A stretch of 62,550 bases of DNA, the filler included, from Nemertoderma westbladi (lineage: Eukaryota; Animalia; Xenacoelomorpha), in the NCBI GenBank assembly GCA_032718475.1. It is 4 parts of 4 records of this genome, joined end to end, with 100 filler letters (N's around TTAATTAATTAA, not from the genome) between each part and the next. Parts side by side here need not be neighbours in the genome. Positions count along the whole stretch, not along the records: positions 1 to 23,932 come from JAUCBJ010002586.1; 3 more parts are not named here. The stretch is one strand, 5' to 3'. Positions 2,273-58,028 of this stretch are shown piece after piece. The notes below the pieces were generated by a model. It did not search any database, had not been told where the DNA came from, and was given only the letters and a program-made list of their open reading frames with translations. Made by a program: the position numbers and the translations under genes. Numbering within the stretch: the stretch's first letter is position 1; each line of letters opens with the position of its first letter.

Positions 2273-2427
2273 CTACCAGTTAGGGCGCCCGCAATCAGGA
2301 CATAGAATTTCCTCTCCTTCGGTAATAAAGCCCCGGCCAACCAAACTCGTCTCACATCGCCGGCAGACGAAACACTCGTTATGCCAGTGTTTGTCCTCAA
2401 AGGTAATAAATTTAGTGCCGCCAATAC
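2273..2427 (-). CDS. Coding exon 7: LIM4 and stop
   Basis: ttccag|GT acceptor; encodes IGGTKFITFEDKHWHNECFVCRRC...LCPDCGRPNW followed by TAG. Confidence 0.93.
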
Positions 2428-5400
2428 CTGGAAATAATAATAATATATATCAATAATAAAAATAATAAAAGCACAATAAAATATATCTATGACTTGCAGG
2501 TCCTACTACGATAGTAAGACAGTGGTGATCAATAAATTTATAGGGCGTTACCTGTGATTGGTTGACTTCAATCAGTACTTGCTTGTGATTGGTTGACCAC
2601 AATCAGTACTTACCTGTGATTGGTTGACCATAATCAGTATACCTACCTGTAATTGGTTGACCACAATCCGTGCACTTCTTAGCAAATAGTTTCCCAAAAC
2701 AATCGGCGCAGAATGGCCGCTCATCCCGGGTGGTGAACCGTTGTCCGGCCAACGAAACGGCGCATTCGAAGCAGGTGAAGCACTCCCGATGGAAGGGTTC
2801 GCCCCGGTACGTAACTCCACCCGATGTGATCACCTGTAGGGAGAGATGTTGGAAGAACATATGAGTAATATAATGTTACACGAGTCAATGTAAGAAATAA
2901 TGATATGGAGCCTAATTTTTACCTTTAAACTTAGTTTAACTTACAATTATTCTTTATCCACTATAGTACACTTTAATAAACTGTTTTACACATAGTTAAC
3001 ATTAGTACTTACTTACCATTCCATAGTGCACTTAGTTCTTACCGTACTGCACTTAGCTCTTACCTTACTGCACTTAGTTTTTACCTTACTGCACTTAGCT
3101 CTTGCCTTACTGCACTTAGTTCTTACCTTACTGCACTTAGTTCTTACCGTACTGCACTTAGTTCTTACCTTACTGCACTTAGCTCTTACCTTACTGCACT
3201 TTGCTCTTACCTTACTGCACTTAGTTTTTACCTTACTGCACTTAGCTCTTGCCTTACTGCACTTAGCTCTTACCTTAATCCACTTAGTTTTTACCTTACT
3301 GCACTTAGCTCTTACCTTACTGCACTTAGTTTTTACCTTACTGCACTTAGTTCTTACCGTACTGCACTTAGCTCTTACCTTACTGCACTTAGTTCTTACC
3401 TTACTGCACTTAGCTCTTACCTTACTGCACTTAGTTCTTACCTTATTGCATTTAGTTCTTACCTTACTGCACTTAGCTCTTACCTAACTGCACTTAGTTC
3501 TTACCTTATTGCACTTAGTTCTTACCTTACTGCACTTAGTTCTTACCTTATTGCACTTAGCTCTTACCTTACTGCACTTAGTTCTTACCTTATTGCACTT
3601 AGTTCTTACCTTACTGCACTTAGTTCTTACCTTATTGCACTTAGCTCTTACCTTACTCCACTTAGTTCTTACCTTACTGCACTTAGTTCTTACCTTATTG
3701 CATTTAGTTCATACCTTACTGCACTTAGCTCTTACCTTACTGCACTTAGTTCTTACCTTATTGCACTTAGTTCTTACCTTACTGCACTTAGTTCTTACCT
3801 TATTGCACTAGTCAAGTTTTATGAAGAACTGACTGGACTTATTAAGGACATCCCGAAACACAATGTTAAAGTCATTGCTGGTGACCTGAATGCGCAAATT
3901 GGCCCAGAAGACATCAAGGGTTACACCTATAACACCAGTTCTAACAGAAATGGGTACTTACTCTTAGACCTAATGGAAGAATGTGAATTGATACCAACAA
4001 ACAACACATTCGAAAAGAGTAAGTGGAAGCTATGGACCTTTCAATACCCTAATGGAACCAAAGCACAACTGGATTACATCCTTATAAACAAAAAGTGGAG
4101 AAATAGCATGATCAACTGCGAGGCATACAGCTCGTTCAACCTAATTGGTTCGGACCACAGAATTGTGACTGCAGAGATCAGACTCAGTTTGAGAGCCAGC
4201 AAACCCAGGACAAGCAAGCAAATCAACTATGACTGGGAGAAACTCAGAACTGACAATGCTGTAAAGGATGCTTAGACAGTAGAAGTTCAAAACCGCTTTG
4301 AAGCACTTCAGTCAATGGATGAAGACCAATCCACCGATTCAATATACCAGAATATAATAACAGCCCACAAGGTATCAGCTAAGAGGCATATCCCCCAGAA
4401 ACCTAAACGAAAACAGTATGTGCCATGGCAAAACTCTGAGGTTACTTGTAAGAGAGAAGATCTTAAGATAGCCTACAAAGTTAAAACCGAACAACCAACA
4501 ACCGAAAACATTAACAAGGTTGAGAAAGCTAAGGACGATCTTAAATTGGCCTACAACATCAGCCAGGAAAAGTACATACAGGATAAAACTGAAGCAATTA
4601 CAACTGCTCACATACAGCAACAATCAAGACTTACCTGGCAAACTGTAAATGAGGTATCTGGTCGGAAAAGTTGTGCAAAGGGGCGCCTCAAAGCCGATAG
4701 TCCTGAAGAACGTGTTGGGAAGTGGAAAAATCACTTCAGCAACTTGCTTGGGCAGCCACCAAACATCGAGGTCAGCCCTACAAGGAAAATATATGACAAG
4801 ACACTACCTATAGAAACAGGGGACTTCACACCTGCCGAACTCCAAAGAAGCATTAAAAGCATGTCCAATAATAAAGCGAGTGGATTAGATGAAATCCCAG
4901 CGGAGGTATGGAAAACCGGAGTGCTAAATAGACCATTATTGAATGTTTGCAACCGGATGTTAAAAGGGGAAAAGCCACCACCAATTTGGACTAAAGGTCA
5001 ACTAAAGCCTCTCCCCAAGAAAGGAGACCTCGGCATACCAACAAACTATCGTGGGATCTGTCTGCTTGTGGTAGCTTCCAAAATATACAATAAAATGATT
5101 CTATATAGGATTAGGCCTCACATAGAGAAACTACTGCGTAAGAGCCAAAACGGATTTCGACCAAGTAGATCAACAATAGCTCAGATACTTGCACTACGGA
5201 GACTGATTGAAGGAATTAAGTCAAAGAATCTCCCCGCAGTCCTGACTTTTGTGGACTTCAAGAAGGCATTCGACTCCATCCATAGAGTTAAAATGCTTGA
5301 AATCCTAAGAGCTTATGGAATACCAGAAGTAATTGTTGCTGGCATTGGATTGCTATATTGTGACACAGAAGCGCAGGTACTCTCACCAGATGGTGAAACT

Positions 5401-8400
5401 GAGTTTTTCTCAATCCTGGCTGGCGTACTGCAAGGTGACACATTAGCACCATTACTATTTGTAATTGTGCTGGATTACGCAATGAGGACGGCCACAAAGG
5501 GTGAAGATCTGGGATTCACACTTCAAGAACGCAGAAGTAGTAGATATCCGGCAACTACAGTCACAGACACCGACTTTGCGGATGACATCGCCCTGCTCTC
5601 TAATACGCTAGCAGATGCACAGCTTCTACTAAATAAAGTGGAGAGGGCTGCTAAGAAGGTTGGATTGCATATAAATGCTACCAAGACCGAATTCATGACC
5701 TTTAATGTTGATGAAAACTTGACAACCATTGATAATAATTAACTAAGGCAGGTCGATGACTTCCAGTACCTTGGATCATGGATAGAGAGTAGCAAAAAGG
5801 ACATAGAAGTTAGGAAAGCAAAGGCTTGGGTAGCTCTATCAAAAATGGATACCATCTGGAAATCAGATCTCTCCAGGCACCTGAAGACCAAGTTCTTTCG
5901 AGCCACAGTGGAAAGTGTATTTTTATACGGGGGTGAGACCTGGACACTGACTACATCACTTCAACAACGAATTGATGGTTGCTACACAAGACTACTAAGG
6001 GCAGCCCTAAACATCAGCTGGAGACAACACATGACAAACGCCGAGCTTTATGGTACAATACCACCTGTATCAACCACCCTCCGTGAACGCAGATTAAGAT
6101 TCAGTGGGCACTGCTGGCGAAGTAAAGACGAGGTCATACCAGATCTACTTTTCTGGCAACCGACTCATGGAAAGCGTAGTCGTGGACGACCTGCCATAAC
6201 ATATATAGATCAACTTGAAAGGGATACTGAACTTGGGAGAAACGAAATTGCGACAACTATGGAGAATCGGGAAGCCTGGAAGGATCTCATTTCCACTGTC
6301 CGTGTTCGCTCGACCTAGTAGTAGTAGTATTGCACTTAGCTCTTACCTTACTGCACTTAGTTCTTACCTTACTGCACTTAGTTTTTACCTTGCTGCACTT
6401 AGCTCTCACCCTATTGCCATTAGCTCTTACCTTACTGCACTTAGTTCTTACCTTACTGCACTTAGTTCTTACCTTACTGCACTTAGCTCTTACCTTACTG
6501 CCCTTAGTTCTTACCTTATTTAACTTAGTTCTTACCTCACTGCACTTAGTTCTTACCTCACTGCACTTAGTTCTTACCTTACTGCACTTAGTTCTTACCT
6601 TACTGCACATAGTTCTTACCTTACTGCACTTAGTTCTTACCTTACTGCACTTAGCTCTTACCCTATTGCCATTAGCTCTTACCTTACTGCACTTAGTTCT
6701 TACCTTACTGCACATAGTTTTTACCTTACTGCACTTAGCTCTTACCTTACTGCACTTAGTTCTTACCTTACTGCCCTTAGTTCTTACTTTACTGCACTTA
6801 GTTCTTACCTTACTGCACTTAGTTCTTATCTTACTGCACTTAGTTCTTACCTTACTGCACTTAGCTCTTACCCTATTGCCATTAGCTCTTACCTTACTGC
6901 ACTTAGTTCTTCCCTTACTGCACATAGTTCTTACCTTACAGCACTTAGCTCTTCCCTTACTGCACTTTGCTCTTACCTTACTGCACTTAGCTCTTACCTT
7001 ACTGCACTTAGTTCTTACCTTACTGCACTTAGTTCTTACCTTACTGCACCTAGTTCTTACCTTACTGCACTTAGTTCTTACCTTACAGCACTTAGTTCTT
7101 ACCTTACTGCACTTAGCTCTTACCATACTCCACTTAGTTCTTACCTTACTGCACTTAGTTCTTACCTTACTGCACTTAGTTCTTACCTTACTGCACTTTG
7201 CTCTTACCTTACTGCACTTTTCTCTTACCTTACTGCACTTAGCTCTTACCTTACTGCACTTAGTTCTTACCTTACTGCACTTAGTTCTTACCTTACTGCA
7301 CTTAGTTCTTACCTTACTGCACTTAGTTCTTACCTTACTGCACTTAGCTCTTACCATACTCCACTTAGTTCTTACCTTACTGCACTTAGTTCTTACCTTA
7401 CTGCACTTAGTTCTTACCTAACTGCACTTAGTTCTTACCTTACTGCACTTAGTTCTTACCTTACTGCACTTAGTTCTTACCTTACTGCACTTAGTTCTTA
7501 CCTTACTGCACTTAGTTCTTACCTTGCTGCACTTAGTTCTTACCTTACTGCACTTAGTTCTTACCTTACTGCACTTAGTTCTTACCTTACTGCACTTAGT
7601 TCTTACCTTACTGCACTTAGTTCTTACCTTACTGCACTTAGTTCTTACCTTACTGCACTTAGTTCTTACCTTACTGAACTTAGTTCTTACCTTACTGCAC
7701 TTAGTTCTTACCTTACTGCACTTAGTTCTTACCCTACTCCACTTAGTTCTTACCTTACTGCACTTAGCTCTTACCCTACTCCACTTAGTTCTTACCTTAC
7801 TGCACTTAGCTCTTACCTTACTCCACTTAGTTCTTACCTTACTGCACTTAGTTCATACCTTACTGCACTTAGTTCTTACCTTACTGCACTTAGTTCTTAC
7901 CTAACTGCACTTAGTTCTTACCTTACTGCACTTAGTTCTTACCTTGCTGCACTTAGTTCTTACCTTACTGCACTTAGTTCTTACCTTGCTGCACTTAGTT
8001 CTTACCTTACTGCACTTAGCTCTTACCTTACTGCACTTAGTTCTTACCTTACTGCACTTAGCTCTTACCTTACTCCACTTAGTTCTTACCTTACTGCACT
8101 TAGTTCATACCTTACTGCACTTAGTTCTTACCTTACTGCACTTAGTTCTTACCTAACTGCACTTAGTTCTTACCTTACTGCACTTAGTTCTTACCTTGCT
8201 GCACTTAGTTCTTACCTTACTGCACTTAGTTCTTACCTTGCTGCACTTAGTTCTTACCTTACTGCACTTAGCTCTTACCTTACTGCACTTAGTTCTTACC
8301 TTACTGCACTTAGCTCTTACCATACTCCACTTAGTTCTTACCTTACTGCACTTAGTTCTTACCTTACTGCACTTAGTTCTTACCTTGCTGCACTTAGTTC

Positions 8401-11400
8401 TTACCTTACTGCACTTAGTTCTTACCTAACTGCACTTAGTTCTTACCTTACTGCACTTAGTTCTTACCTTACTGCACTTAGTTCTTACCTTGCTGCACTT
8501 AGTTCTTACCTTACTGCACTTAGTTCTTACCTTACTGCACTTAGCTCTTACCTTACTCCACTTAGTTCTTACCTTACTGCACTTAGTTCTTACCCTACTC
8601 CACTTAGTTCTTACCTTACTGCACTTAGCTCTTACCCTACTCCACTTAGTTCTTACCTTACTGCACTTAGCTCTTACCTTACTCCACTTAGTTCTTACCT
8701 TACTGCACTTAGTTCATACCTTACTGCACTTAGTTCTTACCTTACTGCACTTAGTTCTTACCTAACTGCACTTAGTTCTTACCTTACTGCACTTAGTTCT
8801 TACCTTGCTGCACTTAGTTCTTACCTTACTGCACTTAGTTCTTACCTTGCTGCACTTAGTTCTTACCTTACTGCACTTAGCTCTTACCTTACTGCACTTA
8901 GTTCTTACCTTGCTGCACTTAGTTCTTACCTTACTGCACTTAGTTCTTACCTTACTGCACTTAGCTCTTACCTTACTCCACTTAGTTCTTACCTTACTGC
9001 ACTTAGTTCTTACCTTACTGCACTTAGTTCTTACCTTACTGCACTTAGTTCTTACCTTACTGCACTTAGTTCTTACCTTGCTGCACTTAGTTCTTACCCT
9101 ACTCCACTTAGTTCTTACCTTACTGCACTTAGCTCTTACCCTACTCCACTTAGTTCTTACCTTACTGCACTTAGCTCTTACCTTACTCCACTTAGTTCTA
9201 CCTTACTGCACTTAGTTCATACCTTAAATGCACTTAGTTCTTACCTTACTGCACTTAGTTCTTACCTTACTGCACTTAGTTCTTACCTTACTGCACTTAG
9301 TTCTTACCTAACTGCACTTAGTTCTTACCTTACTACACTTAGTTCTTACCTTACTGCACTTAGTTCTTACCTTACTGCACTTAGTTCTTACCTAACTGCA
9401 CTTAGTTCTTACCTTACTGCACTTAGTTCTTACCTTGCTGCACTTAGTTCTTACCTTACTGCACTTAGTTCTTACCTTACTGCACTTAGCTCTTACCTTA
9501 CTCCACTTAGTTCTTACCTTACTGCACTTAGTTCTTACCCTACTCCACTTAGTTCTTACCTTACTGCACTTAGCTCTTACCCTACTCCACTTAGTTCTTA
9601 CCTTACTGCACTTAGCTCTTACCTTACTCCACTTAGTTCTTACCTTACTGCACTTAGTTCATACCTTACTGCACTTAGTTCTTACCTTACTGCACTTAGT
9701 TCTTACCTTACTGCACTTAGTTCTTACCTTACTGCACTTAGTTCTTACCTACCTGCACTTAGTTCTTACCTTACTGCACTTAGTTCTTACCTTACTGCAC
9801 TTAGTTCTTACCTTACTGCACTTAGTTCTTACCTTACTGCACTTAGTTCTTACCTAACTGCACTTAGTTCTTACCTTACTGCACTTAGTTCTTACCTTAC
9901 TGCACTTAGTTCTTACCTTACTGCACTTAGTTCTTACCTTACTGCACTTAGTTCTTACCTTACTGCACTTAGTTCTTACCTAATTGCACTTAGTTCTTAC
10001 CTTTGCACTTAGTTCTTACCTTGCTGCACTTAGTTCTTACCTTACTGCACTTAGTTCTTACCTTACTGCACTTAGCTCTTACCTTACTCCACTTAGTTCT
10101 TACCTTACTGCACTTAGTTCATACCTTACTGCACTTAGTTCTTACCTTACTGCACTTAGTTCTTACCTTACTGCACTTAGTTCTTACCTCACTCCACTTA
10201 GTTCTTACCTTACTGCACCTAGCTCTTACCCTACTCCACTTAGTTCTTACCTTACTACACTTAGCTCTTACCTTACTGCACTTAGTTCTTACCTTACTGC
10301 ACTTAGTTCTTACCTTACTGCACTTAGTTCTTACCTTACTGCACTTAGTTCTTACCTAACTGCACTTAGTTCTTACTTTACTGGACTTAGTTCTTACCTT
10401 ATTGCATTTAGTTCTTACTTTACTGCACTTAGTTCTTACCTTATTGCATTTAGTTCTTACCTTACTGCACTTAGTTCTTACCTTGCTGCACTTAGTGCAT
10501 CGAGTAGCGAAACGGTCTTCGTAACAGGTTGTGCAGTAAGGGTGATCGTCTTTTGGCACGAAGGCTTTAGTTCCAATCGCGATCCTACAGACAAAGCAGG
10601 TGAAACATTCTTCGTGGTAAGAGTGACCTCGCCATTCCAGTTTCTTCGTTCCTGTTGAATAAAGGTTAAGAATAAATATAAGTACTCCAGGTGAAGCAGT
10701 ACTAGTATACGGCATAGGAATAAAAGTAAAAATACACCATTTTTAAGAAAAAAGTAAATACCATGTATTTGTAGGAAATAAAATCTATATTCTTGAAAAG
10801 TCGGCCACATCGGCTAAAAAGACAATTGGTCCGCGTAATTAAATAATATAAATAAATAAATAAATAAATCGAATTAATAATAGTTTGACAAATAATTAAT
10901 TAATGAAAAATTTATCTGTTTTATAACAGATTTATTTATAACAAATCACCACTGTGACGGGAAATTTTAAATCAGTTTGGTCACGGGTTTCAAATAAATT
11001 TTAAATTTGGTGATATCATGTGAATACTATTAATATACAAAGTTAAATGAGGTAATAAATCCTGCGTGCGTCATATTAGTTCAAACATACAAATTTCCCA
11101 GTCGAAAAACCATACACTAAGTGAGATACATTGTATTTATTAGAAAAAATGAAAATAAACGACTCACCAGCTTTAAATACTTTTCCGCAACTGTCGCAAC
11201 GGGAGGCGAAGTGTTCGTCGTGGCAGTCGGCGCAGTAAAGTCGCTCGTTCTTCGCTCCGAACGGTTTATCTACCAGAGAGATTTTACAACTGGAACAGCT
11301 GAAGCAGCGCTCGTGCCAATGTTTGTCTTTGTACGAAAGATCCTAAAAAAAGGAACGACAGATCCTAAAAAAGGTACGAATAATCCTAAAAGGTACGAAT

Positions 11401-13756
11401 AATCCTAAAAGGTACAACGACAGATCTTAAAAGGTACGACAGATCCTATAAGGTACAACTAATCCTAAAAGGTACGGCGACAGATCCTAAAAGGTACGAC
11501 ACATCCTAAAAATAGGTATGACAAATCCTAAACCGTACGACAGATCCTAGATCCTAAAACGCACGAACTAAGAGAAAAAAATGCAGGACCGACCCTAAAA
11601 GGTACGACAGATCCGAAATGAAAGGTACGACAGATCCTAAAAAGGTACGACTCAGCCTCAAAAAAAAGTACGACTGAGCCTCAAAAAAGGTACGGCTGAT
11701 CCCAAAAGGCACGGCAGATCCTAAAAAAACGTACGACAGATCTTAAAAAGAACGGCAGATCCTAAAAGGTACGGAAGATACTAAAAGGTACCACAGATCC
11801 AAAAAAGGTACCTACGACAGATCCTAAAAGTTAATCATGACATCACATTAGAGAAGTTTTGATTCGGGGGAGCATCAAATTGATACTATTTAAAGTGTGA
11901 CTAAAACGTCACAACATACGCCTTATAATATTCATGAATGATGACGTCACGAGACCCACTTTACTGTCTGTGCCATTGATGACGTCACTAGACCCACCTT
12001 ACTGTCTGTGCCAATGATGACATGGCATTCCTCGCACGTGTTGGCGAATATATCCTCGTAACAGCGGACGCAGTAGGGGTGGTCCTCTCGGAGGATGTAA
12101 CGGTGTCCCACCAGCGTCTTGTCGCAGTTCCAACACGCGAAATGACTGCCTGAGCCGCCGCCGCCGCCGCTTGTTGTCTTGACGACGGTGCGTTCGGTGC
12201 GTTGGCCCCCGCCTCCGAAGCTAACGGCACGAGAGGACAGCTCCCTCCAGTTCTTGCTGCGCACAAAATTCTATAGAATATAAACGAAATTAAACAGTAA
12301 TTTATATATTCCTATGAATTAAGAAACAATATGTAAATATAACTGTCACTCTACTAGCTTTACCACCCAGAGAAAGGCTTGCTTCCTGATTCAATGACGA
12401 AATCTACCATATGTTGTGGGGCGATGGGTTACAATGTTTGAACGTGGTCGGTCGGTCGGTCGGTCGGTCGGTCGGTCGGTCGGTCGGTCGGTCGGTCGGT
12501 CGGTCGGTCGGTCGGTCGGTCGGTCGGTCGGTCGGTCGGTCGGTCGGTCGGTCGGTCGGTCGGTCGGTCGGTCGGTCGGTCGGTCGGTCGGTCGGTCGGT
12601 CGGTCGGTCGGTCGGTCGGTCGGTCGGTCGGTCGGTCGGTCGGTCGGTCGGTCGGTCGGTCGGTCGGTCGGTCGGTCGGTCGGTCGGTCGGTCGGTCGGT
12701 CGGTCGGTCGGTCGGTCGGTCGGTCGGTCGGTCGGTCGGTCGGTCGGTCGGTCGGTCGGTCGGTCGGTCGGTCGGTCGGTCGGTCGGTCGGTCGGTCGGT
12801 CGGTCGGTCGGTCGGTCGGTCGGTCGGTCGGTCGGTCGGTCGGTCGGTCGGTCGGTCGGTCGGTCGGTCGGTCGGTCGGTCGGTCGGTCGGTCGGTCGGT
12901 CGGTCGGTCGGTCGGTCGGTCGGTCGGTCGGTCGGTCGGTCGGTCGGTCGGTCTTACAGACCGATACTTACGTCGTTTTGTTGGAAGAATGCCTGGTCCA
13001 CGTTAAAGAATTCCGCTAACTCCATGATGGATATCCTCCCGTCGTTGTTTGTATCGTAAACGCGAAGCAACAGCTGCACCATGTCATCGATATCGCGTTG
13101 TCCGGCGTTGGGGTTCTTGGCCCTGACTGTGTCCCGGCATAGCTCCTAAACAATAGAACAACAATTTTCTCTATAGGCACGCGGTCCACCCTCATGGTTG
13201 CTATACAAAATAATATTTTATGATTCGTTTGGTATACAAAAAATAAATAATATTACATTCACTAATTCAAAAAGTAAGAAAATATTATCCAAATGGCAAA
13301 AATAAACTAAAATAGACCAGTAAATTAATGTTATTATACCTGGTATAAAAAGTAATGCATTATTCCACATAAAGTAATATATTATTCAGACATCTGGTAT
13401 AAAAAACAAAACATTATTCCACCTGATGCAGAACGTAGATTATTCTGACACCTGGTATAAAAAGTAATACATTATTCTACCTGGTATAAAAAGTAAGATA
13501 TCATTCCACCTGGTATAAAAAGTAATACATTATTCTACCTGGTATAAAAAGTAAGATATCATTCCACCTGGTATAAAAAGTAATACATTATGAAACTAAC
13601 CCGCAACTCGCGCGCGGCAACGTGACCGCTGAAGTTAGTGTCGTAACGGCCCCACAGGGAGAAGAAATCTCCAACACCCACGTTATAGGTGCTGCGCTGA
13701 CCGTGTTGGAGGGGGGACCCGGTCCCAGAGTGGGTGGAGTAGCTGTGTCGAGACAT
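2273..13756 (-). CDS. FHL: EF-hand pair + four-and-a-half LIM domain protein (FHL/Limpet family); join complement(2273..2427,2647..2833,10482..10651,11168..11342,11998..12270,12972..13145,13601..13756), 429 aa
   Basis: All six introns are GT-AG and the phases are compatible (0,0,0,1,0,1). The spliced product has a half LIM plus four LIM domains and ends GTKFITFEDKHWHNECF...LVGRGFITEGEEILCPDC, as in FHL2/Limpet. Confidence 0.88.
2548..2672 (-). repeat. Four tandem copies (steps of 33/31/31 bp) of the exon-6 end plus its splice donor
   Basis: gattgtggtcaaccaatcacag|gtaag is repeated; donor-equivalent positions are 2646, 2613, 2582 (GC) and 2551. Confidence 0.9.
2647..2833 (-). CDS. Coding exon 6: LIM3 and start of LIM4
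   Basis: ctacag|GTG acceptor and G|gtaggt donor; encodes VITSGGVTYRGEPFHRECFTC...FCADCFGKLFAKKCTDCGQPIT. Confidence 0.93.
3025..10496 (-). repeat. 21-bp minisatellite (ACTAAGTGCAGTAAG GTAAGA)n, about 235 copies, derived from the exon-5 donor junction and split by an RTE insertion
   Basis: The array is continuous with the exon-5 3' end (...ACTAAGTGCAGCAAG|GTAAGA). It lies in two blocks, 3025-3809 and 6328-10496. Confidence 0.97.
3810..6327 (+). mobile_element. 5'-truncated RTE-clade LINE (partial APE endonuclease + RT), two premature stops
   Basis: The motifs AGDLNAQIG, QLDYIL, GSDH, NYRGI, QNGFR, DFKKAFDS, GVLQGD and DFADD all lie in one frame, with stops at 4273 and 5740. There is a (TAG)4 tail and a 9-bp TSD TATTGCACT at 3801-3809 and 6328-6336. 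Confidence 0.95.
10482..10651 (-). CDS. Coding exon 5: LIM2 and first CxxC of LIM3
   Basis: caacag|GA acceptor and AAG|gtaaga donor; encodes YHEECFTCFVC...PYCTTCYEDRFATRCTKCSK. Confidence 0.93.
11168..11342 (-). CDS. Coding exon 4: LIM1 and start of LIM2
   Basis: ttttag|GAT acceptor and G|gtgagt donor; encodes DLSYKDKHWHERCFSCSSC...YCADCHDEHFASRCDSC. Confidence 0.93.
11335..11835 (-). repeat. Degenerate 19-23 bp tandem array (about 20+ copies) of the exon-4 acceptor junction
   Basis: The unit CTTTTAG|GATCTGTCGTAC matches the true junction TTTTAG|GATCTTTCGTAC. Confidence 0.88.
11938..12020 (-). repeat. 38-bp duplication of the exon-3 end plus donor
   Basis: tggcacagacagtaa(g/a)|gtgggtct(a/c)gtgacgtcatc occurs twice. 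Confidence 0.88.
11998..12270 (-). CDS. Coding exon 3: Gly-rich linker, half LIM and start of LIM1
   Basis: ctatag|AAT acceptor and AAG|gtgggt donor; encodes HFACWNCDKTLVGHRYILREDHPYCVRCYEDIFANTCEEC. Confidence 0.92.
12446..12953. repeat. Perfect (GGTC)n microsatellite, about 127 units
   Basis: Uninterrupted ggtc run in intron 2. Confidence 0.99.
12972..13145 (-). CDS. Coding exon 2: canonical EF-hand (YDTNNDGRISIMELAEFF)
   Basis: tttag|GAG acceptor and GAC|gtaagt donor; 174 nt open; 12-residue EF loop D-x-N-x-D-G-x-I-x-x-x-E. Confidence 0.85.
13330..13592 (-). repeat. About 29-bp tandem repeat (about 8 copies) containing TTTTTATACCAG|GT
   Basis: Recurrent acattattc(c/t)acctggtataaaaagtaa on the + strand, starting just inside intron 1. 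Confidence 0.85.
13601..13756 (-). CDS. Coding exon 1: ATG plus first, degenerate EF-hand (DFFSLWGRYDTNFSGHVAARELR)
   Basis: ATG at 13756 and donor CGG|GTTAGT at 13600. An acceptor-like ttcccctag ends at 13767, which suggests a further upstream exon, probably UTR. Confidence 0.75.
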
Positions 13757-16079
13757 CGTGAGATAACTAGGGGAACAATGGCGACGTAATGAAAGTTAAA
13801 AAAGAGACGTAATGAAAGCAACGGTAATGGGATATTATTAATTATTAGTAGAGGGCATCAAATAAAAGTAAACAATATTGACGATTGGATATTTACATAA
13901 ACTAAAAACTACCTATCTCCACATACATAAATAAATAAAATACATATAATACCTAATTAAGCGTTATATTTATTAGTAAATTATGGCTATTTAAAATATT
14001 TACTTACCAGAATTATAATAATTGTTATAACAGGTCAATCAATAATAATAGTAACAGCGTGAGTTGGTTAAGATTTTGGGTGTGGCGTTCCTAGCATTCC
14101 CGTAACTTATTATATAGCCAAACCACGTGAGTTTATACCGGTAGCCAAGCAACGGTCAAGGATAACTCTCTTGGTAGAGATAGTGGAGCCATTATGGGGT
14201 GAGTCTAAGTATGCGGGGGGTTTTGGCAATAATACGAGTTTGAGTAAGCTTATCCTTAATAATTGATTGTATTCGTGTGCAAGTAAGTATTGCGTACAAA
14301 CTAATGACATTTTTTTGGCATAAACAATTATCAAAACTTGCATGTGACATGTTCTCTACAGTAGCAATAATAGTTATATACCAATGCAGTTCGCCGACTA
14401 AGAGGTAAAACACAAAAGGATGTCAATTAGGGGCTGAAATAATTCTAACAAACTAAATAACCATAAATAACTAAAGAATAATAGCGTATTAGTTAGTTGT
14501 GGGGCGAGACACGCAGTAAAGGTAGCGCACAATTATAATTAGTTAATAGCGCAAAATTTAATGTCTGTATGTAATGAAAAATTCAATCGTAAATAACTTT
14601 TGAAGATTTTAACCATTTTCAACCAAAATATTAAAAAATATAAATATATACAATATAAAATATTTTTGAAAGTTACGGGCAAATACCTCTCAAACTTTTG
14701 ACTCCAGATCAAATCGAACTTGTTTCGACTTGCTCAAGTTCGCGTGCTGCGCGACGCCCCACGAACGTGTATTTATCAATAAATGCAGGAAACAAGTCAA
14801 CCCAATTTCTGAACTCTATTAATTAGCACGCTCTGAAAGCTATTTTATATTTTTAAAACTATTCTTTGTGTTCTTATTATGCACGAGTTCAAATTGCTGA
14901 CTATGTATGATATTTGTTTATGAAACTTTCAACAATGTTAAGTTAACATGAAAACATTATAACAATGTTTATTGTAACAAATTAAAATTTTACACAAATA
15001 AAAAATAGAGTAAAGTTTTCTTCGGTCGTAAGCCCAGGGATTACACACAAAGTTATATTGTAGTTCCGGGAGCCTTCAAGTGACAAAAAAGTAATCACTT
15101 GAGGTTACTTATACACTGAATTAAGGGAAAGGCCCATGTTTGAGTGGCATGTTATTCTGACCAAAATAATAAACGTGAGTCCAAAGCACAGGTTACAGTT
15201 TCATGATTTTACACTCATAATCAGTTGATATTTAAGTAGATTTTCCCTGGAGGGTGGGAGAGGGGGGTTCAGGAGTCACTTTCAGTCTGTAATATTGTCT
15301 GGATTGGAAACCCAGATGTCCGAAGCGACCAGATATACAAGAGGAGTATCCGAAGGATCCATTCCGCCGCATTCAAACCCAAGCACAGTTTATTTGGCTA
15401 CCAAAAGAAAGGCGACGATTTATTCGACTAACACTTAACAATCACTCATTTAGGAGGGCGGTACTGTTAGTACATACACGATAATTAATAGCCGAATAAA
15501 GTAAAACCACATTCCACGGTATTTGCCAGCATATAACAATACGGTACCGGGAAATTACTAATGGGAAACAGGTTGTGGTAGCCAAATTAGCGACACCAAA
15601 TAGTTTGTTTGATTGTTGTAAGTTAAGTATATTCGATATAGAAAGTTATAAAGCGAACAATGGCTATAGAATGCATTGTAGTGTACAACCCGTTCACTGG
15701 GTCTTGAGAACATAAAATCTATGTATGGGAGTAATGTATCAATACTTGTTGCAAAGTAATTTCACAGTGTTCCGATCCTCGTTTCTGTATTTTAACTCGC
15801 TAGGTTCGTTCTTGCTGCACACCTCTCGGATACTGCACAGTGTGAAGCGTTACTTTACACATTCAAGTATGTAAATATTTGATACTGGCAAATTAAGATT
15901 TCGGCATAAAGTGTTAAGAATGTTGGTAATGTAAATATGTAAAGTGTGCCATGACGTTGGTGTAAATTGATAGAGAACTAGAAATACAGCAAGCTGGCTG
16001 GAAGAAGCCTGGGGGAAGAATCCTAGCCAAGACTACAAAAATGAACTATGTCAGTCAGCAGTAAGTAAACTAAACAATC

Positions 16080-17287: not shown

Positions 17288-20200
17288 TTATATCATTATG
17301 ACCGCGCCCTATAATGATTTATCCGGCCTGTAATGCTTAACATTTCATTATAAATTCATTGTAAATATATCATTATGACCGCGCCCTGTAATGATTTGTC
17401 CCGCCTGTAATGCTTAACATTTCATTATAAATTCATTGCAAATATATCATTATGACCGCGCCCTGTAATGATTTGTCCGGCCTGTAATGCTTAACATTTC
17501 ATTATAAATTCATTGTAAATATATCATTATGACCGCGCCCTATAATGATTTGTCCGGCCTGTAATGCTTAACATTTCATTATAAATTCATTGTAAATATA
17601 TCATTATGACCGCGCCCTATAATGATTTGTCCGGCCTGTAATGCTTAACATTTCATTATAAATTCATTGTAAATATATCATTATGACCGCGCCCTATAAT
17701 GATTTGTCCGGCCTGTAATGCTTAACATTTCATTATAAATTCATTGTAAATATATCATTATGACCGCGCCCTGTAATGATTTGTCCGGCTTGTAATGCTT
17801 AACATTTCATTATAAATTCATTGTAAATATATCATTATGACCGCGCCCTATAATGATTTGTCCGGCTTGTAATGCTTAACATTTCATTATAAATTCATTG
17901 TAAATATATCATTATGACCGCGCCCTATAATGATTTGTCCGGCCTGTAATGCTTAACATTTCATTATAAATTCATTGTAAATATATCATTATGACCGCGC
18001 CCTATAATGATTTGTCCGGCTTGTAATGCTTAACATTTCATTATAAATTCATTGTAAATATATCATTATGACCGCGCCCTGTAATGATTTGTCCGGCCTG
18101 TAATGCTTAACATTTCATTATAAATTCATTGTAAATATATCATTATGACCGCGCCCTATAATGATTTGTCCGGCTTGTAATGCTTAACATTTCATTATAA
18201 ATTCATTGTAAATATATCATTATGACCGCGCCCTATAATGATTTGTCCGGCCTGTAATGCTTAACATTTCATTATAAATTCATTGTAAATATATCATTAT
18301 GACCGCGCCCTGTAATGATTTGTCCGGCTTGTAATGCTTAACATTTCATTATAAATTCATTGTAAATATATCATTATGACCGCGCCCTATAATGATTTGT
18401 CCGGCTTGTAATGCTTAACATTTCATTATAAATTCATTGTAAATATATCATTATGACCGCGCCCTATAATGATTTGTCCGGCTTGTAATGCTTAACATTT
18501 CATTATAAATTCATTGTAAATATATCATTATGACCGCGCCCTATAATGATTTGTCCGGCTTGTAATGCTTAACATTTCATTATAAATTCATTGTAAATAT
18601 ATCATTATGACCGCGCCCTGTAATGATTTGTCCGGCCTGTAATGCTTAACATTTCATTATAAATTCATTGTAAATATATCATTATGACCGCGCCCTATAA
18701 TGATTTGTCCGGCTTGTAATGCTTAACATTTCATTATAAATTCATTGTAAATATATCATTATGACCGCGCCCTATAATGATTTGTCCGGCTTGTAATGCT
18801 TAACATTTCATTATAAATTCATTGTAAATATATCATTATGACCGCGCCCTGTAATGATTTGTCCGGCTTGTAATGCTTAACATTTCATTATAAATTCATT
18901 GTAAATATATCATTATGACCGCGCCCTGTAATGATTTGTCCGGCCTGTAATGCTTAACATTTCATTATAAATTCATTGTAAATATATCATTATGACCGCG
19001 CCCTATAATGATTTGTCCGGCTTGTAATGCTTAACATTTCATTATAAATTCATTGTAAATATATCATTATGACCGCGCCCTATAATGATTTGTCCGGCCT
19101 GTAATGCTTAACATTTCATTATAAATTCATTGTAAATATATCATTATGACCGCGCCCTGTAATGATTTGTCCGGCCTGTAATGCTTAACATTTCATTATA
19201 AATTCATTGTAAATATATCATTATGACCGCGCCCTATAATGATTTGTCCGGCCTGTAATGCTTAACATTTCATTATAAATTCATTGTAAATATATCATTA
19301 TGACCGCGCCCTATAATGATTTGTCCGGCCTGTAATGCTTAACATTTCATTATAAATTCATTGTAAATATATCATTATGACCGCGCCCTATAATGATTTG
19401 TCCGGCTTGTAATGCTTAACATTTCATTATAAATTCATTGTAAATATATCATTATGACCGCGCCCTGTAATGATTTGTCCGGCCTGTAATGCTTAACATT
19501 TCATTATAAATTCATTGAATGCATGATTGAATGTATTGCTTAACATTTCATTATAAATTCATTGTAAATATATCATTATGACCGCGCCCTATAATGATTT
19601 GTCCGGCTTGTAATGCTTAACATTTCATTATAAATTCATTGTAAATATATCATTATGACCGCGCCCTATAATGATTTGTCCGGCTTGTAATGCTTAACAT
19701 TTCATTATAAATTCATTGTAAATATATCATTATGACCGCGCCCTGTAATGATTTGTCCGGCCTGTAATGCTTAACATTTCATTATAAATTCATTGTAAAT
19801 ATATCATTATGACCGCGCCCTATAATGATTTGTCCGGCTTGTAATGCTTAACATTTCATTATAAATTCATTGTAAATATATCATTATGACCGCGCCCTGT
19901 AATGATTTGTCCGGCCTGTAATGCTTAACATTTCATTATAAATTCATTGTAAATATATCATTATGACCGCGCCCTATAATGATTTGTCCGGCTTGTAATG
20001 CTTAACATTTCATTATAAATTCATTGTAAATATATCATTATGACCGCGCCCTATAATGATTTGTCCGGCCTGTAATGCTTAACATTTCATTATAAATTCA
20101 TTGTAAATATATCATTATGACCGCGCCCTGTAATGATTTGTCCGGCCTGTAATGCTTAACATTTCATTATAAATTCATTGTAAATATATCATTATGACCG

Positions 20201-22773
20201 CGCCCTGTAATGATTTGTCCGGCTTGTAATGCTTAACATTTCATTATAAATTCATTGTAAATATATCATTATGACCGCGCCCTGTAATGATTTGTCCGGC
20301 TTGTAATGCTTAACATTTCATTATAAATTCATTGTAAATATATCATTATGACCGCGCCCTATAATGATTTGTCCGGCTTGTAATGCTTAACATTTCATTA
20401 TAAATTCATTGTAAATATATCATTATGACCGCGCCCTATAATGATTTGTCCGGCTTGTAATGCTTAACATTTCATTATAAATTCATTGTAAATATATCAT
20501 TATGACCGCGCCCTGTAATGATTTGTCCGGCCTGCAATGCTTAACATTTCATTATAAATTCATTGTAAATATATCATTATGACCGCGCCCTATAATGATT
20601 TGTCCGGCTTGTAATGCTTAACATTTCATTATAAATTCATTGTAAATATATCATTATGACCGCGCCCTGTAATGATTTGTCCGACCTGTAATGCTTAACA
20701 TTTCATTACAAATTCATTGTAAATATATCATTATGACCGCGCCCTATAATGATTTGTCCGGCTTGTAATGCTTAACATTTCATTATAAATTCATTGTAAA
20801 TATATCATTATGACCGCGCCCTATAATGATTTGTCCGGCTTGTAATGCTTAACATTTCATTATAAATTCATTGTAAATATATCATTATGACCGCGCCCTA
20901 TAATGATTTGTCCGGCTTGTAATGCTTAACATTTCATTATAAATTCATTGTAAATATATCATTATGACCGAGCCCTATAATGATTTGTCCGGCTTGTAAT
21001 GCTTAACATTTCATTATAAATTCATTGTAAATATATCATTATGACCGCGCCCTGTAATGATTTGTCCGGCCTGTAATGCTTAACATTTCATTATAAATTC
21101 ATTGTAAATATATCATTATGACCGCGCCCTATAATGATTTGTCCGGCTTGTAATGCTTAACATTTCATTATAAATTCATTGTAAATATATCATTATGACC
21201 GCGCCCTGTAATGATTTTTCCGGCCTGTAATGATTAACATTTCATTATAAATTCATTGTAAATATATCATTATGACCGCGCCCTGTAATAATTTGTCCGG
21301 CTTGTAATGCTTAACATTTCATTATAAATTCATTGTAAATATATCATTATGACCGCGCCCTGTAATGATTTGTCCGGCCTGTAATGCTTAACATTTCATT
21401 ATAAATTCATTGTAAATATATCATTATGACCGCGCCCTGTAATGATTTGTCCGGCCTGTAATGCTTAACATTTCATTATAAATTCATTGTAAATATATCA
21501 TTATGACCGCGCCCTATAATGATTTGTCCGGCCTGTAATGCTTAACATTTCATTATAAATTCATTGTAAATATATCATTATGACCGCGCCCTGTAATGAT
21601 TTGTCCGGCCTGTAATGCTTAACATTTCATTATAAATTCATTGTAAATATATCATTATGACCGCGCCCTATAATGATTTGTCCGGCTTGTAATGCTTAAC
21701 ATTTCATTATAAATTCATTGTAAATATATCATTATGACCGCGCCCTGTAATGATTTGTCCGGCCTGTAATGCTTAACATTTCATTATAAATTCATTGTAA
21801 ATATATCATTATGACCGCGCCCTATAATGATTTGTCCGGCTTGTAATGCTTAACATTTCATTATAAATTCATTGTAAATATATCATTATGACCGCGCCCT
21901 GTAATGATTTGTCCGGCCTGTAATGCTTAACATTTCATTATAAATTCATTGTAAATATATCATTATGACCGCGCCCTGTAATGATTTGTCCGGCCTGTAA
22001 TGCTTAACATTTCATTATAAATTCATTGTAAATATATCATTATGACCGCGCCCTATAATGATTTGTCCGGCCTGTAATGCTTAACATTTCATTATAAATT
22101 CATTGTAAATATATCATTATGACCGCGCCCTGTAATGATTTGTCCGGCCTGTAATGCTTAACATTTCATTATAAATTCATTGTAAATATATCATTATGAC
22201 CGCGCCCTATAATGATTTGTCCGGCTTGTAATGCTTAACATTTCATTATAAATTCATTGTAAATATATCATTATGACCGCGCCCTGTAATGATTTGTCCG
22301 GCCTGTAATGCTTAACATTTCATTATAAATTCATTGTAAATATATCATTATGACCGCGCCCTATAATGATTTGTCCGGCTTGTAATGCTTAACATTTCAT
22401 TATAAATTCATTGTAAATATATCATTATGACCGCGCCCTATAATGATTTGTCCGGCCTGTAATGCTTAACATTTCATTATAAATTCATTGTAAATATATC
22501 ATTATGACCGCGCCCTGTAATGATTTGTCCGGCCTGCAATGCTTAACATTTCATTATAAATTCATTGTAAATATATCATTATGACCGCGCCCTGTAATTA
22601 TTTGTCCGGCTTGTAATGCTTAACATTTCATTATAAATTCATTGTAAATATATCATTATGACCGCGCCCTGTAATGATTTGTCCGGCTTGTAATGCTTAA
22701 CATTTCATTATAAATTCATTGTAAATATATCATTATGACCGCGTCCTATAATGATTTGTCCGGCTTGTAATGT
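17288..22773. repeat. 77-bp satellite, about 71 near-identical copies
   Basis: Unit atatatcattatgaccgcgccct(a/g)taatgatttgtccggc(c/t)tgtaatgcttaacatttcattataaattcattgtaa. Confidence 0.98.
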
Positions 22774-23932: not shown

Positions 23933-24032
23933 NNNNNNNNNNNNNNNNNNNNNNNNNNNNNNNNNNNNNNNNNNNNTTAATTAATTAANNNNNNNNNNNN
24001 NNNNNNNNNNNNNNNNNNNNNNNNNNNNNNNN
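23933..24032. other. Assembly gap spacer
   Basis: 100 nt: N run with a central TTAATTAATTAA. Confidence 0.98.
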
Positions 24033-39790: not shown

Positions 39791-39890
39791 NNNNNNNNNN
39801 NNNNNNNNNNNNNNNNNNNNNNNNNNNNNNNNNNTTAATTAATTAANNNNNNNNNNNNNNNNNNNNNNNNNNNNNNNNNNNNNNNNNNNN
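39791..39890. other. Assembly gap spacer
   Basis: N run with a central TTAATTAATTAA. Confidence 0.98.
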
Positions 39891-41694: not shown

Positions 41695-41725
<31 letters not shown>

Positions 41726-43975
41726 CTTGTGAAAGAAGTAGATTCTACGGTAGTACGAACCAACCGGTTGGTTGAATATAAAACACGTGAAAACAAAGAA
41801 TCTATAGCATTAGCCCTAATATGAATAAACTTAGGTAAGTTAAATACACCAAACATGAACGAAACGCATGTACCATAGCTACACCTAAATAAACGCCTAG
41901 CAGCAGTGTTATACGCAACCCGAATTTTATTATGCACGTCACAGGAGTAGTTAAGTTTAGCCCATAACGCGTTGCAATAAAACTGGGTGCAGAAACAGCG
42001 GAATAGGTTGACCTTAACTTCCGTAGAACAACTACCAAATTTCCTTATTAAACTATTAGCCCTCCTATAAAATGACCTAAGTGGGTTAAGTATATCAGGA
42101 TTATCATCGGTATTGCTGCACAAAATATGTCCTAAATATTTAAGTTCTGTAACTATTTTTAATTTATGATTGTTAATATGCACCTGACCAACATCAACAT
42201 TATTGCACGATTTTGGAAAGTAATACATACATTTAGTTTTCTTCAGATTTACTGTGATACAATGCCCTAGGGCGTACTTTTCAAAAATAGATAATAGTTT
42301 TTGTAGACCGTTTATTGAGTTTGCGCACAATGCTAAGTCGTCTGTGTACATAAGATGATTGGTACGAACATCTGCCATAGCACAGCCCACGTTACAGGAG
42401 TTTAATTCCCTGCTGAGGTTATCCAGGTAAACGCTATAAAGGTAGGGCGAGAGGATACCCCCCTGTTTTGTAACGTTTGTAACCTGAAATGTTTCAGAAG
42501 AGAACCCCCCCCCCCCCCCCCCCCCCCCCAAAGAACGCACAGCTGTTGACATCTATACCAAAATCTTAGTACTCTTATATAAAACAATGGAATGTTCCTA
42601 TCAATAAGTTTCTGAAATAAAGTGTAATGGTGTACAAGATCAGATGCTTTGGAAGAGTCAATAAAACATATATACACCGATGAGTCATTCTCTAGGTAAT
42701 ATTGAATAATTTCCTTAGGGTAAATATGCACAATTCGGTCCCATTGCCTTCCTTAAAACCAAATTGTGAATCTGACTTTAATAGCTTATCACAGAGCCGA
42801 TCGATATACATTACTTCAAATATTTTACTGATTGCTGTAGCAATTGCGATACCACGGTAATTATCTGCACTAGTAATATCTTCATTATTATCTTTTACCA
42901 ATGGAATCATATTGCACATCATAAAAGAAGATGGAATGTAACCATGAACATTGATAAAAGTAAATAGATTGGCTAAATGAACAGACAAACTAGTTGGTCC
43001 GTGAATAAAAATACACCTGATATCCCGTCCGGTCCAGTTGCCTTTCCAGCAACTAGTTTGTCTATCGCAAATATTACTTCTATTGGTTGCACAATCATAT
43101 CACTACTAAATCTAATATTAGAAAAACTATTTTCAATCGATTCCTTTCTAGAATCCGGTTGACCCGCATTGTAGAGGTTCTCGAATTTATTCTTGAACAT
43201 GGCGCAGACATTGGCCTCACCCACTGCATCTCCTACTTTATTGGAGATGGGCGTATGAGAGCCCGTTTGTTTGCGAACATTAGACCAAAAATCGTTTTGG
43301 TTGTTTGAATAAATTGATTCCGCTAGTTTGTCATTACGTATTTTTAATGTATTACGTTTACATTCGCGCATACTGCGCTTAAAATCAAGTTTAGCCTTAA
43401 TATATACAATAAAAATAGGTCCACTTCTGGGACACCCATTTGCCTTCCATAATGAAAACATACGCCTAGAATATTCATATTTACTACGCACAAAGTCGTT
43501 CTAGCCAGGAATATTCGAGTTAGTACCATTATAATTTACTGGTTTCACTGGAATATATAACGCCATTGCACTAATTATACTATTATGGTATGCATCAATA
43601 TCGTTTGCGTGATTATTGCATTGCGAATTATTGCATGTAACTGGGCCAATAATATCCGAAAGCAGTGAGTTTAGCATGGTAGTATAATCTTCAAGTTGTT
43701 TCGTCGTCGCCTTTTGCCAATCGTGCTTGACACCTTGGGACGACGGTTTATTACTAGAAGAGTTACTATCAGCTTGCACAAATAAATCTACGTGTAGATC
43801 TATACTACATGATATAGGAAAATGATCAGAGATGGATAAATTGTAGTGTACAGCAAACTCCTTTACTGATGCAAGCAGGCTGCCGGTGCACACAGCATGG
43901 TCAAGCCATGAACAAGTGCCGTGTGCGGCGCTTACATTGGTAAAAGTGTCTTGTGGGAGGTGAGCCAAATCACAA
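41130..43975 (-). mobile_element. RTE-X-like LINE, frameshifted and interrupted near its 3' end
   Basis: Motifs SWLDH, SDHFP, NYRGIA, QFGFK, QGGILSPYL, YTDD and FCTQFYCNALW. A putative 3' end atgggcc..gcctgcaataaa(ata)n lies near 41130-41185. Confidence 0.85.
41520..41726 (+). mobile_element. 3' end of a plus-strand non-LTR element with a (CTAAA)n tail
   Basis: ggcgaaataaa(ctaaa)5 abuts and truncates the RTE-X ORF. Confidence 0.55.
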
Positions 43976-56607: not shown

Positions 56608-56707
56608 NNNNNNNNNNNNNNNNNNNNNNNNNNNNNNNNNNNNNNNNNNNNTTAATTAATTAANNNNNNNNNNNNNNNNNNNNNNNNNNNNNNNNNNNNN
56701 NNNNNNN
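56608..56707. other. Assembly gap spacer
   Basis: N run with a central TTAATTAATTAA. Confidence 0.98.
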
Positions 56708-57402
56708 ACAAATATTAATTAATCAACCTGTCGTTCTGTCACTTTTTTTGCCCTGTTCAATTTTGAACGTTAATAACTCGATCAATCCTCAATGAAATGT
56801 AACCAAACTTGGTAGACAAATAGTCTGTCAAAAGTTTAGAAATTTTCCAAGTTGAATTTGCTTGGGGCCTTCGTTCAGCACCAGTGTAACTGTCTTACAG
56901 TTATAATAAATTTATTTATCCAAAATTACAACGCTTGACATCAGCGGGTTGCTAGGAGACTAAATTAGCTGGGTTTCTGGCAAATTACGAAATTACAGCA
57001 TGGATACTTATACGGCTTAACATGCTTGCGCATAGGCCTGTTTCAAAAGAGGCCAGTTTTTCCAGTACTTTAACTTTACTACTGCACTACACTACCGGTA
57101 GTACTAATTATTTACTTAATGTTGTATTTATACCTGTAATATCTGAATATAAACATGGATGGCCTTTGCTTTTGGTTGTTTATGATAAAAAAAAACATAT
57201 CTACTTGTTATTAATTGTTTTTTCCTGCCTGATTACAGTATTAATTACTACCAGTTGCCAGTAAAGATACGTTGCTGCCTAAAGTGTAAAATATTTAGCC
57301 TACTGGTCTGATATTGTATTCCACCTTAATCTGCTCATTGCTGCATTGCTTAAGTTATTCAATTAAATATTAATTATTCATAATTATTTACATTCAAACA
57401 TT

Positions 57403-58028
57403 ATGGTGAATAAATGCTGCGTCGTTGGCTGCAAGACAGGGTACACTAGTCTAGTGGCGTTCGGAAACCTTCATTTAAGTTTCCGACGGCGCCGGACTTG
57501 CGAGAGCGATGGGTTCGCTTCATTAACCGCCAGGACTACAAAGTCACGAAGTATTCCTGCGTTTGCGTGGACCAATTTGAGGATGATTACTTAACAACAT
57601 CTGGAGCTGAAAACGTGAAATTGGATTGGTCCATTGTCTCCCGTAATAACCATCGCAGTTGCAGTTGCTGGGACAATTCGAGAGTACCACCCTGACGAGA
57701 TGTCCCAATTCCACAGACAATTTGCAGTCTCGTCGCTTGATGATATTACTGTGGATTGCTGTCCCTGGCTATGTCTTCGACAAAACAACCCATCGCGTTC
57801 TGACAGTCTAATCTATAAGTTAGATTTGAGTGGCGATATGCATCGGTTGGATGGAGCGATACGAATATCGGCAGATTTACGAGTTAAACTCGAACTAACT
57901 CACCGCCCTGTTCATCTCCCGAAATGGTTTTGGTTGGCAACCAATCACCACTGCATATTGAATAACACCGCACAGCTCGATAACCTGGTGGTTTATCTTC
58001 GAAACACGACCCCAGAACAACAACTCTA
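57403..58028 (+). pseudogene. THAP-domain (P-element-type) transposase 5' fragment, frameshifted
   Basis: MVNKCCVVGC in one frame and FPTAPDLRERWVRFINR...SCVCVDQF in another, giving the THAP C2CH pattern with H replaced by Q. Cut by the RTE at about 58030. Confidence 0.7.

Follow-up and report, generated by a model that had tools for sequence, protein, structure and literature searches.

A predicted gene joining a calbindin-type EF-hand pair to the 4.5-LIM array of a Limpet/FHL homologue in Nemertoderma westbladi

In this work we analysed a stretch of 62,550 nucleotides from the xenacoelomorph Nemertoderma westbladi (assembly GCA_032718475.1), referred to below in its whole length as the window, and we describe on its minus strand a gene of seven exons predicted to be spliced into the message of a 429-residue protein. 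Two EF-hands of the calbindin type are followed in this protein by a Gly-rich linker and by the 4.5 LIM domains of a Limpet/FHL homologue. In our reading, to which we give a probability of about 0.5, the region that in Limpet comprises PET and 1.5 LIM domains is here replaced by an EF lobe, likely EF3-EF4 of a hexa-EF-hand protein, through which calcium would switch a 4.5-LIM adaptor. The fusion is likely a real, lineage-restricted new architecture in the TES/FHL class, and it is from its sequence that we infer a function. A preliminary description of the same DNA had reported the two EF exons and their splice to the LIM exons; its observation is confirmed here and its interpretation partly supported.

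As adaptors of muscle and the cytoskeleton, FHL and Limpet proteins sense tension in actin and shuttle between there and the nucleus. Limpet carries PET as well as six LIM domains, and in Drosophila both PET-bearing and LIM-only isoform classes are found (PMC6337844). Binding of FHL2 to tensed F-actin depends on one phenylalanine in each LIM domain, and on release the protein enters the nucleus (bioRxiv 10.1101/2020.03.06.979245). The PET domain of the TES class binds the protein's own LIM domains and governs localisation (PMC3305314), and in testin the strain sensing of the LIM domains is hidden in the full-length protein (PMC8684727).

Gene model

Joined by coordinates, the seven minus-strand exons run from 13756 to 2273 and give 1290 nt, that is 429 codons in one unbroken frame with a single, terminal stop. 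All six introns are GT-AG, with phases 0, 0, 0, 1, 0 and 1. Both EF peptides and the phase-0 junction 12972-12270 are present as first reported, and the EF-hand pair, the Gly-rich linker and the 4.5 LIM domains follow each other in this order in the product. The features are the following (aa, amino acids).

13601..13756, minus strand: coding exon 1, aa 1-52; a 29-residue Ser/Gly/His leader, then the first EF-hand helix and loop
13642-13607, minus strand: first EF-hand loop, aa 39-50, with Ala at loop position 9
12972..13145, minus strand: coding exon 2, phase 0-0, 58 codons (aa 53-110); the first EF-hand's exit helix, then the second EF-hand and a calbindin-type linker
13055-13020, minus strand: second EF-hand loop, canonical, aa 83-94, within exon 2
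12271..12971, minus strand: intron 2, the EF-LIM joint, 701 nt, with a microsatellite inside
11998..12270, minus strand: coding exon 3, aa 111-201; a 42-codon linker, basic then Gly-rich; the half-LIM finger begins at aa 153 and is followed by the first part of LIM1
11168..11342, minus strand: coding exon 4; LIM1 (Phe229 = FHL2 F80) and the start of LIM2
10482..10651, minus strand: coding exon 5; LIM2 (Phe290 = FHL2 F141) and the start of LIM3
2647..2833, minus strand: coding exon 6; LIM3 (Phe349 = FHL2 F200) and the start of LIM4
2273..2427, minus strand: coding exon 7; LIM4 (Phe412 = FHL2 F263) and the TAG stop
14111..14116, minus strand: TATA-like box, candidate promoter (consensus match in a motif scan)
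about 14132-14137, minus strand: second TATA-like box (motif scan)
14008..14100, minus strand: candidate non-coding first exon, 5' end approximate, with a consensus GTAAGT donor at 14007

The joint between the EF and LIM exons is predicted from the reading frame and the splice signals. Methionine occurs in the product only at aa 1, 74 and 93, and exons 3-7 need upstream exons because they hold no in-frame ATG. The EF exons are the nearest upstream exons that fit them. Among 11 candidate AG acceptors listed in 12460-12100, six were frame-tested, and the one at 12270 alone keeps the LIM frame after the phase-0 donor. Reading through the end of exon 2 gives a stop after 5 codons, and neither poly(A) hexamer (AATAAA, ATTAAA) was found in intron 2. 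The GC content at third codon positions (GC3) is 0.73, 0.71 and 0.73 in exons 1 to 3, spanning the joint, and 0.52-0.58 in exons 4 to 7. The splice from 12972 to 12270 is very probably used.

Upstream of the coding exons, an acceptor AG lies 10 nt 5' of the ATG of exon 1. The donor at 14007 is one of only two GTRAG sites within 17300-13757, and joining the candidate first exon to the acceptor before 13766 places an in-frame stop just 5' of the ATG. The TATA-like box, this donor and this acceptor suggest a non-coding first exon. The window consists of at least four separate contigs joined by spacers (23933-24032, 39791-39890 and 56608-56707), so that the contiguous sequence 5' of the ATG comes to only about 10.2 kb, ending at 23932, of which 5.5 kb is a 77-base tandem array. 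The three spacers are identical, each being 44 N, a 12-base all-frame stop linker and 44 N, and the sequence past 23932 is not a genomic neighbour of the gene.

The EF-hand module

The best 150 of 395 matches in a library of 1.84 billion entries were used to define the EF family; of 32 family matches, the 29 with sufficient coverage supplied the three pair profiles. On the EF3-4 profile of these 29 calbindin-family proteins exon 1 scored 15.0 bits and exon 2 40.4 bits, the best of 500 shuffled versions of each reaching 4.4 and 7.7 bits, respectively. Since exon 2 had served to find the proteins of this profile, only exon 1 provides an independent test. Exons 1 and 2 were the only ones among the 2398 stop-to-stop stretches of the window to fall below E 0.01 on the EF profile. 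Pfam EF-hand models gave at best 25.6 bits on exon 2, slightly below the cutoff of 25.9, and no match for exon 1 searched alone.

When single exons were searched against the PDB, secretagogin and calbindin structures took the top 7 places for exon 2 and 7 of 8 for exon 1. In 2be4_A the match of exon 1 ends at residue 127 (105-127) and that of exon 2 extrapolates to a start at 128 (128-182); adjacent gap-free matches of the two exons were also obtained in 6jlh_A, 2f33_A, 6fie_B and 8ban_C. Both the PDB ranking and the top library matches place the pair nearer to the calbindin family than to calmodulin, troponin C or NCS proteins, and among the best 150 of the 395 matches the top ones are calretinin-like or calbindin-32-like. 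The named family members, of these same two kinds, come from amphioxus, echinoderms, corals and a nemertean.

The pair had at first been likened to the N-terminal pair of calbindin, calretinin and secretagogin. The family assignment holds, the position less so: the pair scored 69.0 bits on EF3-4 (79 positions, gap-free), 61.9 on EF1-2 and 56.1 on EF5-6, and a quick tree (84 rows, 86 columns; 63 of 81 forks open) leaves EF1-2 and EF3-4 unseparated for the window row. We conclude that the pair is more likely the middle lobe EF3-EF4 than the N-terminal EF1-EF2, by a modest margin. EF3-4 of calretinin form a cooperative pair (PMC3913827), and EF3-EF4 of secretagogin are a structural unit of their own (PMC5094748).

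The second loop has D1, N3, D5, G6 and E12, as do 27-29 of the 29 family members, and its ligand set is complete, position 9 included. The first loop keeps D1, N3, S5, G6 and E12. Exons for EF1-2 or EF5-6 were not found among the 2398 stretches, so that two EF-hands are present instead of six; when family members were held out and cut to exon size, the exon-finding test recovered 26/26 and 28/28 of them. As a remnant of EF5 the beginning of exon 3 was ruled out by its negative scores on each of the pair profiles, and its reading as an amphipathic target helix, which is not claimed here, had weak support (moment up to 0.54).

The last residue of exon 2 aligns gap-free at the point where the amphioxus calretinin-like models P0204 and P0281/P0259 diverge, and the exon probably ends at an intron in common with these genes. 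In human CALB1 a comparable pair of phase-0 introns may stand after codons 124 and 182, 174 nt apart, exon 2 being just as long; if so, the EF3-EF4 origin would be fixed. Two of the Branchiostoma lanceolatum models (P0259/P0281/P0204) differ nowhere but in the EF4 loop region, and amphioxus may thus have mutually exclusive EF4 exons. Another family member, P0175, is a calbindin-like six-EF-hand protein from a transcriptome entry named from a protist, Ancoracysta twista; this means either that the family predates animals or that the entry comes from contamination.

The LIM module

Exon 3 matches the FHL half-LIM family PF25076 with E 5.7e-12 (46 bits, cutoff 35), and its best solved match is FHL2 (2miu_A, E 2.4e-15). 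PF00412 (LIM) is above cutoff in exons 3-7, with four LIM patterns at aa 189-424. Over 274 aa the module is 60-71% identical to 33/33 invertebrate rows compared (the Owenia row being partial, 167 aa), and the ends of the LIM exons agree with read-through gene calls of relatives at the half-LIM/LIM1 and LIM3/LIM4 introns. By these comparisons the LIM module is a Limpet/FHL homologue. Phenylalanine occupies the positions equivalent to FHL2 F80, F141, F200 and F263 in all four LIM domains. Separate trees of the two modules had been proposed in the preliminary description. The LIM tree (35 rows) places the protein, on a long branch, outside the nematode-arthropod group (98/95), with no firm placement among the rotifer, hemichordate, spiralian and one partial vertebrate rows, by which the host would likely be an invertebrate outside the ecdysozoans; the EF tree gave no split of EF1-2 from EF3-4.

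The N-terminal side of the module departs from Limpet. In exon 3 we found 42 unrelated codons where most relatives keep a conserved stretch just before the half-LIM, and the residues that complete the second LIM of Limpet, including the first-finger histidine, are missing, which makes this a true half-LIM. The 2398 stretches include no PET exon, the LIM exons being all that a PET-region profile and tblastn matched, a negative that holds for the 10 kb of contiguous upstream sequence. The proposal that the EF-hand pair had taken the place of PET and the first zinc finger fits as to PET, and the part lost is larger, namely PET plus one and a half LIM domains (PMC6337844). Exon shuffling, also proposed, fits the EF side; on the LIM side the conserved Limpet exon start is lacking, which places the break elsewhere than at the ancestral acceptor.

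Limpet of Drosophila and LIM-9 of C. elegans carry PET, and of the 120 Limpet/FHL homologues listed (of 687) 112 have it and 8 do not; PET-less 4.5-LIM forms are nevertheless common in invertebrates too, as seen in these 8, in many insect isoforms and in a 143-member arthropod cluster. The homologues P0079, P0129 and P0296 have very different N-termini, and on the sequences compared the N-terminus of Limpet/FHL is an exchangeable slot. One homologue, P0014 of Chamberlinius hualienensis (817 aa), looks like a testin-like PET-LIM gene fused to a short Limpet isoform and is likely a gene-prediction merge.

Search for the combination in other proteins

Among 318 proteins compared, in which non-ecdysozoan invertebrates are thinly sampled, 161 matched the EF profile, 153 the LIM profile and none both. 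The EF-hand Pfam family was absent from 13 LIM-search matches and from the 120 homologues listed of 687, and the EF pair had no match in these 130 distinct LIM-module homologues. Conversely, no LIM domain was found in the best 150 of the 395 EF matches, a list dominated by multi-EF proteins. Against longer proteins, a word-indexed search with exon 2 yielded no significant match among its 7 candidates. In the ESM Atlas, exon 2 fell into generic EF-hand clusters, and the PET-less clusters found with P0079 were LIM-only, none being listed with an EF-hand family. Scanning metagenomes with exon 2 returned two loci: L001, which we take to be an NCS/recoverin-type EF-hand protein, and L002, rejected as an off-frame chance match within a bacterial gene. 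P0003, of 423 aa and without PET, was considered as an orthologue by its length and ruled out, its N-terminus having no EF-hand.

In the literature searched, mostly without subscription journals, we found neither a LIM or FHL protein with EF-hands arranged as here nor an FHL/Limpet protein with a calcium-binding domain of its own. The excerpts of a survey of LIM architectures mention an EF-hand once, in a Monosiga EPLIN protein (PMC3305314), and those of a study, whose rows covered here give one FHL-LIM orthologue for each ambulacrarian genome, have no mention of EF-hands (PMC5888912). The preliminary description regarded this architecture as possibly undescribed, and the searches agree with it; the combination of an EF-hand pair with 4.5 LIM domains is likely new, short of proof.

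Repeats and mobile elements

Several exon borders of the gene have been amplified into the neighbouring introns. In intron 5 (3027-10496) the last bases of exon 5 together with its donor form a 21-base unit amplified about 198 + 37 times, so that look-alike donors number in the hundreds; those that come first are in frame, and use of a later donor would insert 7-residue units in LIM3. Tandem repetition into introns likewise affects the donors of exon 3 (11937-12021) and exon 6 (2548-2668) and the acceptor of exon 4 (11348-11830), and intron 1 contains a 29-base repeat with many acceptor-like sites. A LINE-type retrotransposon lies at about 3810-6330 on the plus strand, antisense within the intron 5 array (RVT_1, E 2e-33), its long frame broken by stops at about 4275 and 5742; we assume it to be RTE-like.

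The 77-base satellite upstream occupies 17289-22772, with about 72 copies 95% alike, 3.5 kb 5' of the ATG. Transposon domains only were detected by Pfam in 88 open reading frames chosen from the 361 of at least 45 aa upstream, plus one in intron 5. The other contigs of the window bear a fragmented DUF1759 element (51700-56400), presumably of BEL/Pao type since we regard DUF1759 as typical of BEL/Pao gag, a THAP-domain fragment (57367-57700) and reverse-transcriptase fragments (41719-42552 and 58073-59008).

Discussion

Our proposal starts from what the DNA shows directly: an open frame with its splice signals, the EF-hand and LIM modules, the ligand residues of the loops and the phenylalanines of the LIM domains. 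A duplicated Limpet/FHL gene likely captured two phase-0 exons of a hexa-EF-hand gene, by which a muscle or cytoskeletal force-sensing adaptor would likely have come under calcium control. The second loop would with good confidence bind Ca2+, and the first loop more weakly. By analogy with PET in testin, the EF lobe would fill the regulatory slot and make engagement of the LIM domains calcium-dependent: Ca2+ binding would alter the way in which the lobe shields or frees the LIM array over the flexible linker, tuning in this manner the binding of tensed actin or sarcomeric partners and the partition between cytoskeleton and nucleus, a step that we consider probable. In a brachiopod Limpet is mesodermal and muscular (PMC4404124). 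A more specific version, in which the calbindin middle lobe in the PET slot and the force-activated actin-binding LIM array form a natural coincidence detector of calcium and force, is put forward tentatively, at somewhat less than even odds.

Several points weigh against this proposal. The EF-LIM splice is a prediction from genomic sequence, and the perfect microsatellite filling most of the joining intron is the kind of site where a false join could fall. Further upstream exons are possible, with the end of the contig about 10 kb away and the acceptor standing immediately before the ATG. No orthologue or fusion-like protein was found in the searches described, so that selection on the joint cannot be measured. 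Sequence identity of the EF lobe with the members of its family is only about 25-35%; in 8bav_C exon 2 fits EF6 slightly better than EF4 (13.9 vs 13.1 bits); and Phe4, Val8 and Ala9 of the first loop each occur in 0/29 family members. Calbindin and calretinin are largely buffers, and a switch role is not implied by ancestry (PMC6396707, PMC3913827). The LIM phenylalanine is necessary and possibly not sufficient (bioRxiv 10.1101/2020.03.06.979245).

The main rival, which we hold to be unlikely and yet the most serious, accepts the fusion and denies the gating: the EF lobe would buffer calcium locally as a tethered unit, mediate dimerisation or docking, or be a passenger in partial decay. Its first loop is indeed off-family at position 11 (0/29) as well as at positions 4, 8 and 9, the 42-residue, largely Gly/Thr-rich linker holds the two modules apart, there are buffers in the donor family (PMC6396707), and the differing N-termini of P0079, P0129 and P0296 indicate what Limpet/FHL proteins tolerate. 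Set against this, positions 1, 3, 5, 6 and 12 are kept in both loops and the pair aligns without a gap over 79 positions at about 70% divergence, which suggests selection on fold and ligands; secretagogin, moreover, acts as a sensor by changing conformation and has links with actin and with focal adhesions (PMC6396707).

It is improbable that the locus is the ordinary Limpet gene of the species, with the EF exons serving as one of several alternative 5' cassettes and with PET exons past the end of the contig. Such an arrangement would agree with the PET-bearing and LIM-only isoforms that Drosophila Limpet yields from one locus (PMC6337844), with the prevalence of PET among the homologues listed (112/120 of 687, missing in 8) and with the limited upstream contiguity of about 10 kb. 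However, exon 3 lacks the residues completing LIM2 of Limpet that most relatives have just before the half-LIM, so that a PET isoform joined to it would have a broken LIM. Even at such a locus, the EF-LIM isoform would be new.

Equally improbable is the view that the EF and LIM exons do not form one transcript, either by an assembly join at the microsatellite or as a calbindin fragment upstream of a Limpet/FHL gene starting elsewhere: 127 perfect copies of a 4-base unit (508 bases, 12446-12953, the only such run in the window) do occupy most of intron 2, and the window is strung from short contigs (spacers at 23933, 39791 and 56608), but exon 3 calls for a coding exon upstream, having no ATG and having lost the start conserved in the Limpet exon, exon 1 is no ordinary calbindin exon (own ATG, unrelated leader, no EF1-2 exons in 10 kb), strand, phase and GC3 are consistent across the joint, and varied tandem arrays of 4-5.5 kb were resolved gap-free in the contig, which suggests reads much longer than 508 bases.

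If expressed and working, a calcium switch on a 4.5-LIM adaptor would provide a natural test of the TES-class N-terminal slot as an exchangeable gate, filled by PET, by short peptides or by an EF lobe. It would also mean that the middle lobe of a hexa-EF-hand protein is able to serve alone, and it could be a template for a calcium-plus-tension reporter. The weight of these points is that of one gene model in one fragmentary assembly.

Comparison with known systems

As far as can be judged from sequence, the predicted protein would behave as an FHL/Limpet adaptor to which a calbindin-derived lobe has been added, and it lies outside the strict definitions of FHL, Limpet and hexa-EF-hand proteins.

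The one combination of LIM and EF-hand found in the literature searched, the Monosiga EPLIN-class protein (PMC3305314), belongs to another LIM class and to a choanoflagellate and has an extra cyclic-nucleotide-binding domain; as judged from its description, it gives no sign of an origin shared with the window protein. The hexa-EF-hand family (calbindin D28k, calretinin, secretagogin, Cbp53E) provides the best solved matches and a gap-free fit to EF3-EF4 and the linker, whereas the window protein has one of three lobes, about 25-35% identity, Ala9 in its first loop and a fusion to LIM domains.

With vertebrate FHL1/2/3/5 the protein shares the half-LIM (PF25076) and four LIM domains, the lack of PET (within 10 kb upstream) and the force-sensing phenylalanines; vertebrate FHL proteins, however, consist solely of LIM domains (bioRxiv 10.1101/2020.03.06.979245), while the window protein has a 152-residue N-terminal part with two EF-hands (aa 30-108). 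Limpet, LIM-9 and Etes (PET plus six LIM domains; TES class, PMC3305314) have homologous C-terminal 4.5 LIM domains and introns in common with it; in contrast to them, the window protein is without PET, the first LIM and the first finger of the second LIM and has the EF-hand pair and the 42-residue linker instead. Force-activated actin-binding LIM proteins such as FHL, zyxin and paxillin, finally, are defined by at least three tandem LIM domains each with the phenylalanine (bioRxiv 10.1101/2020.03.06.979245), and the predicted protein has this residue in four of four.

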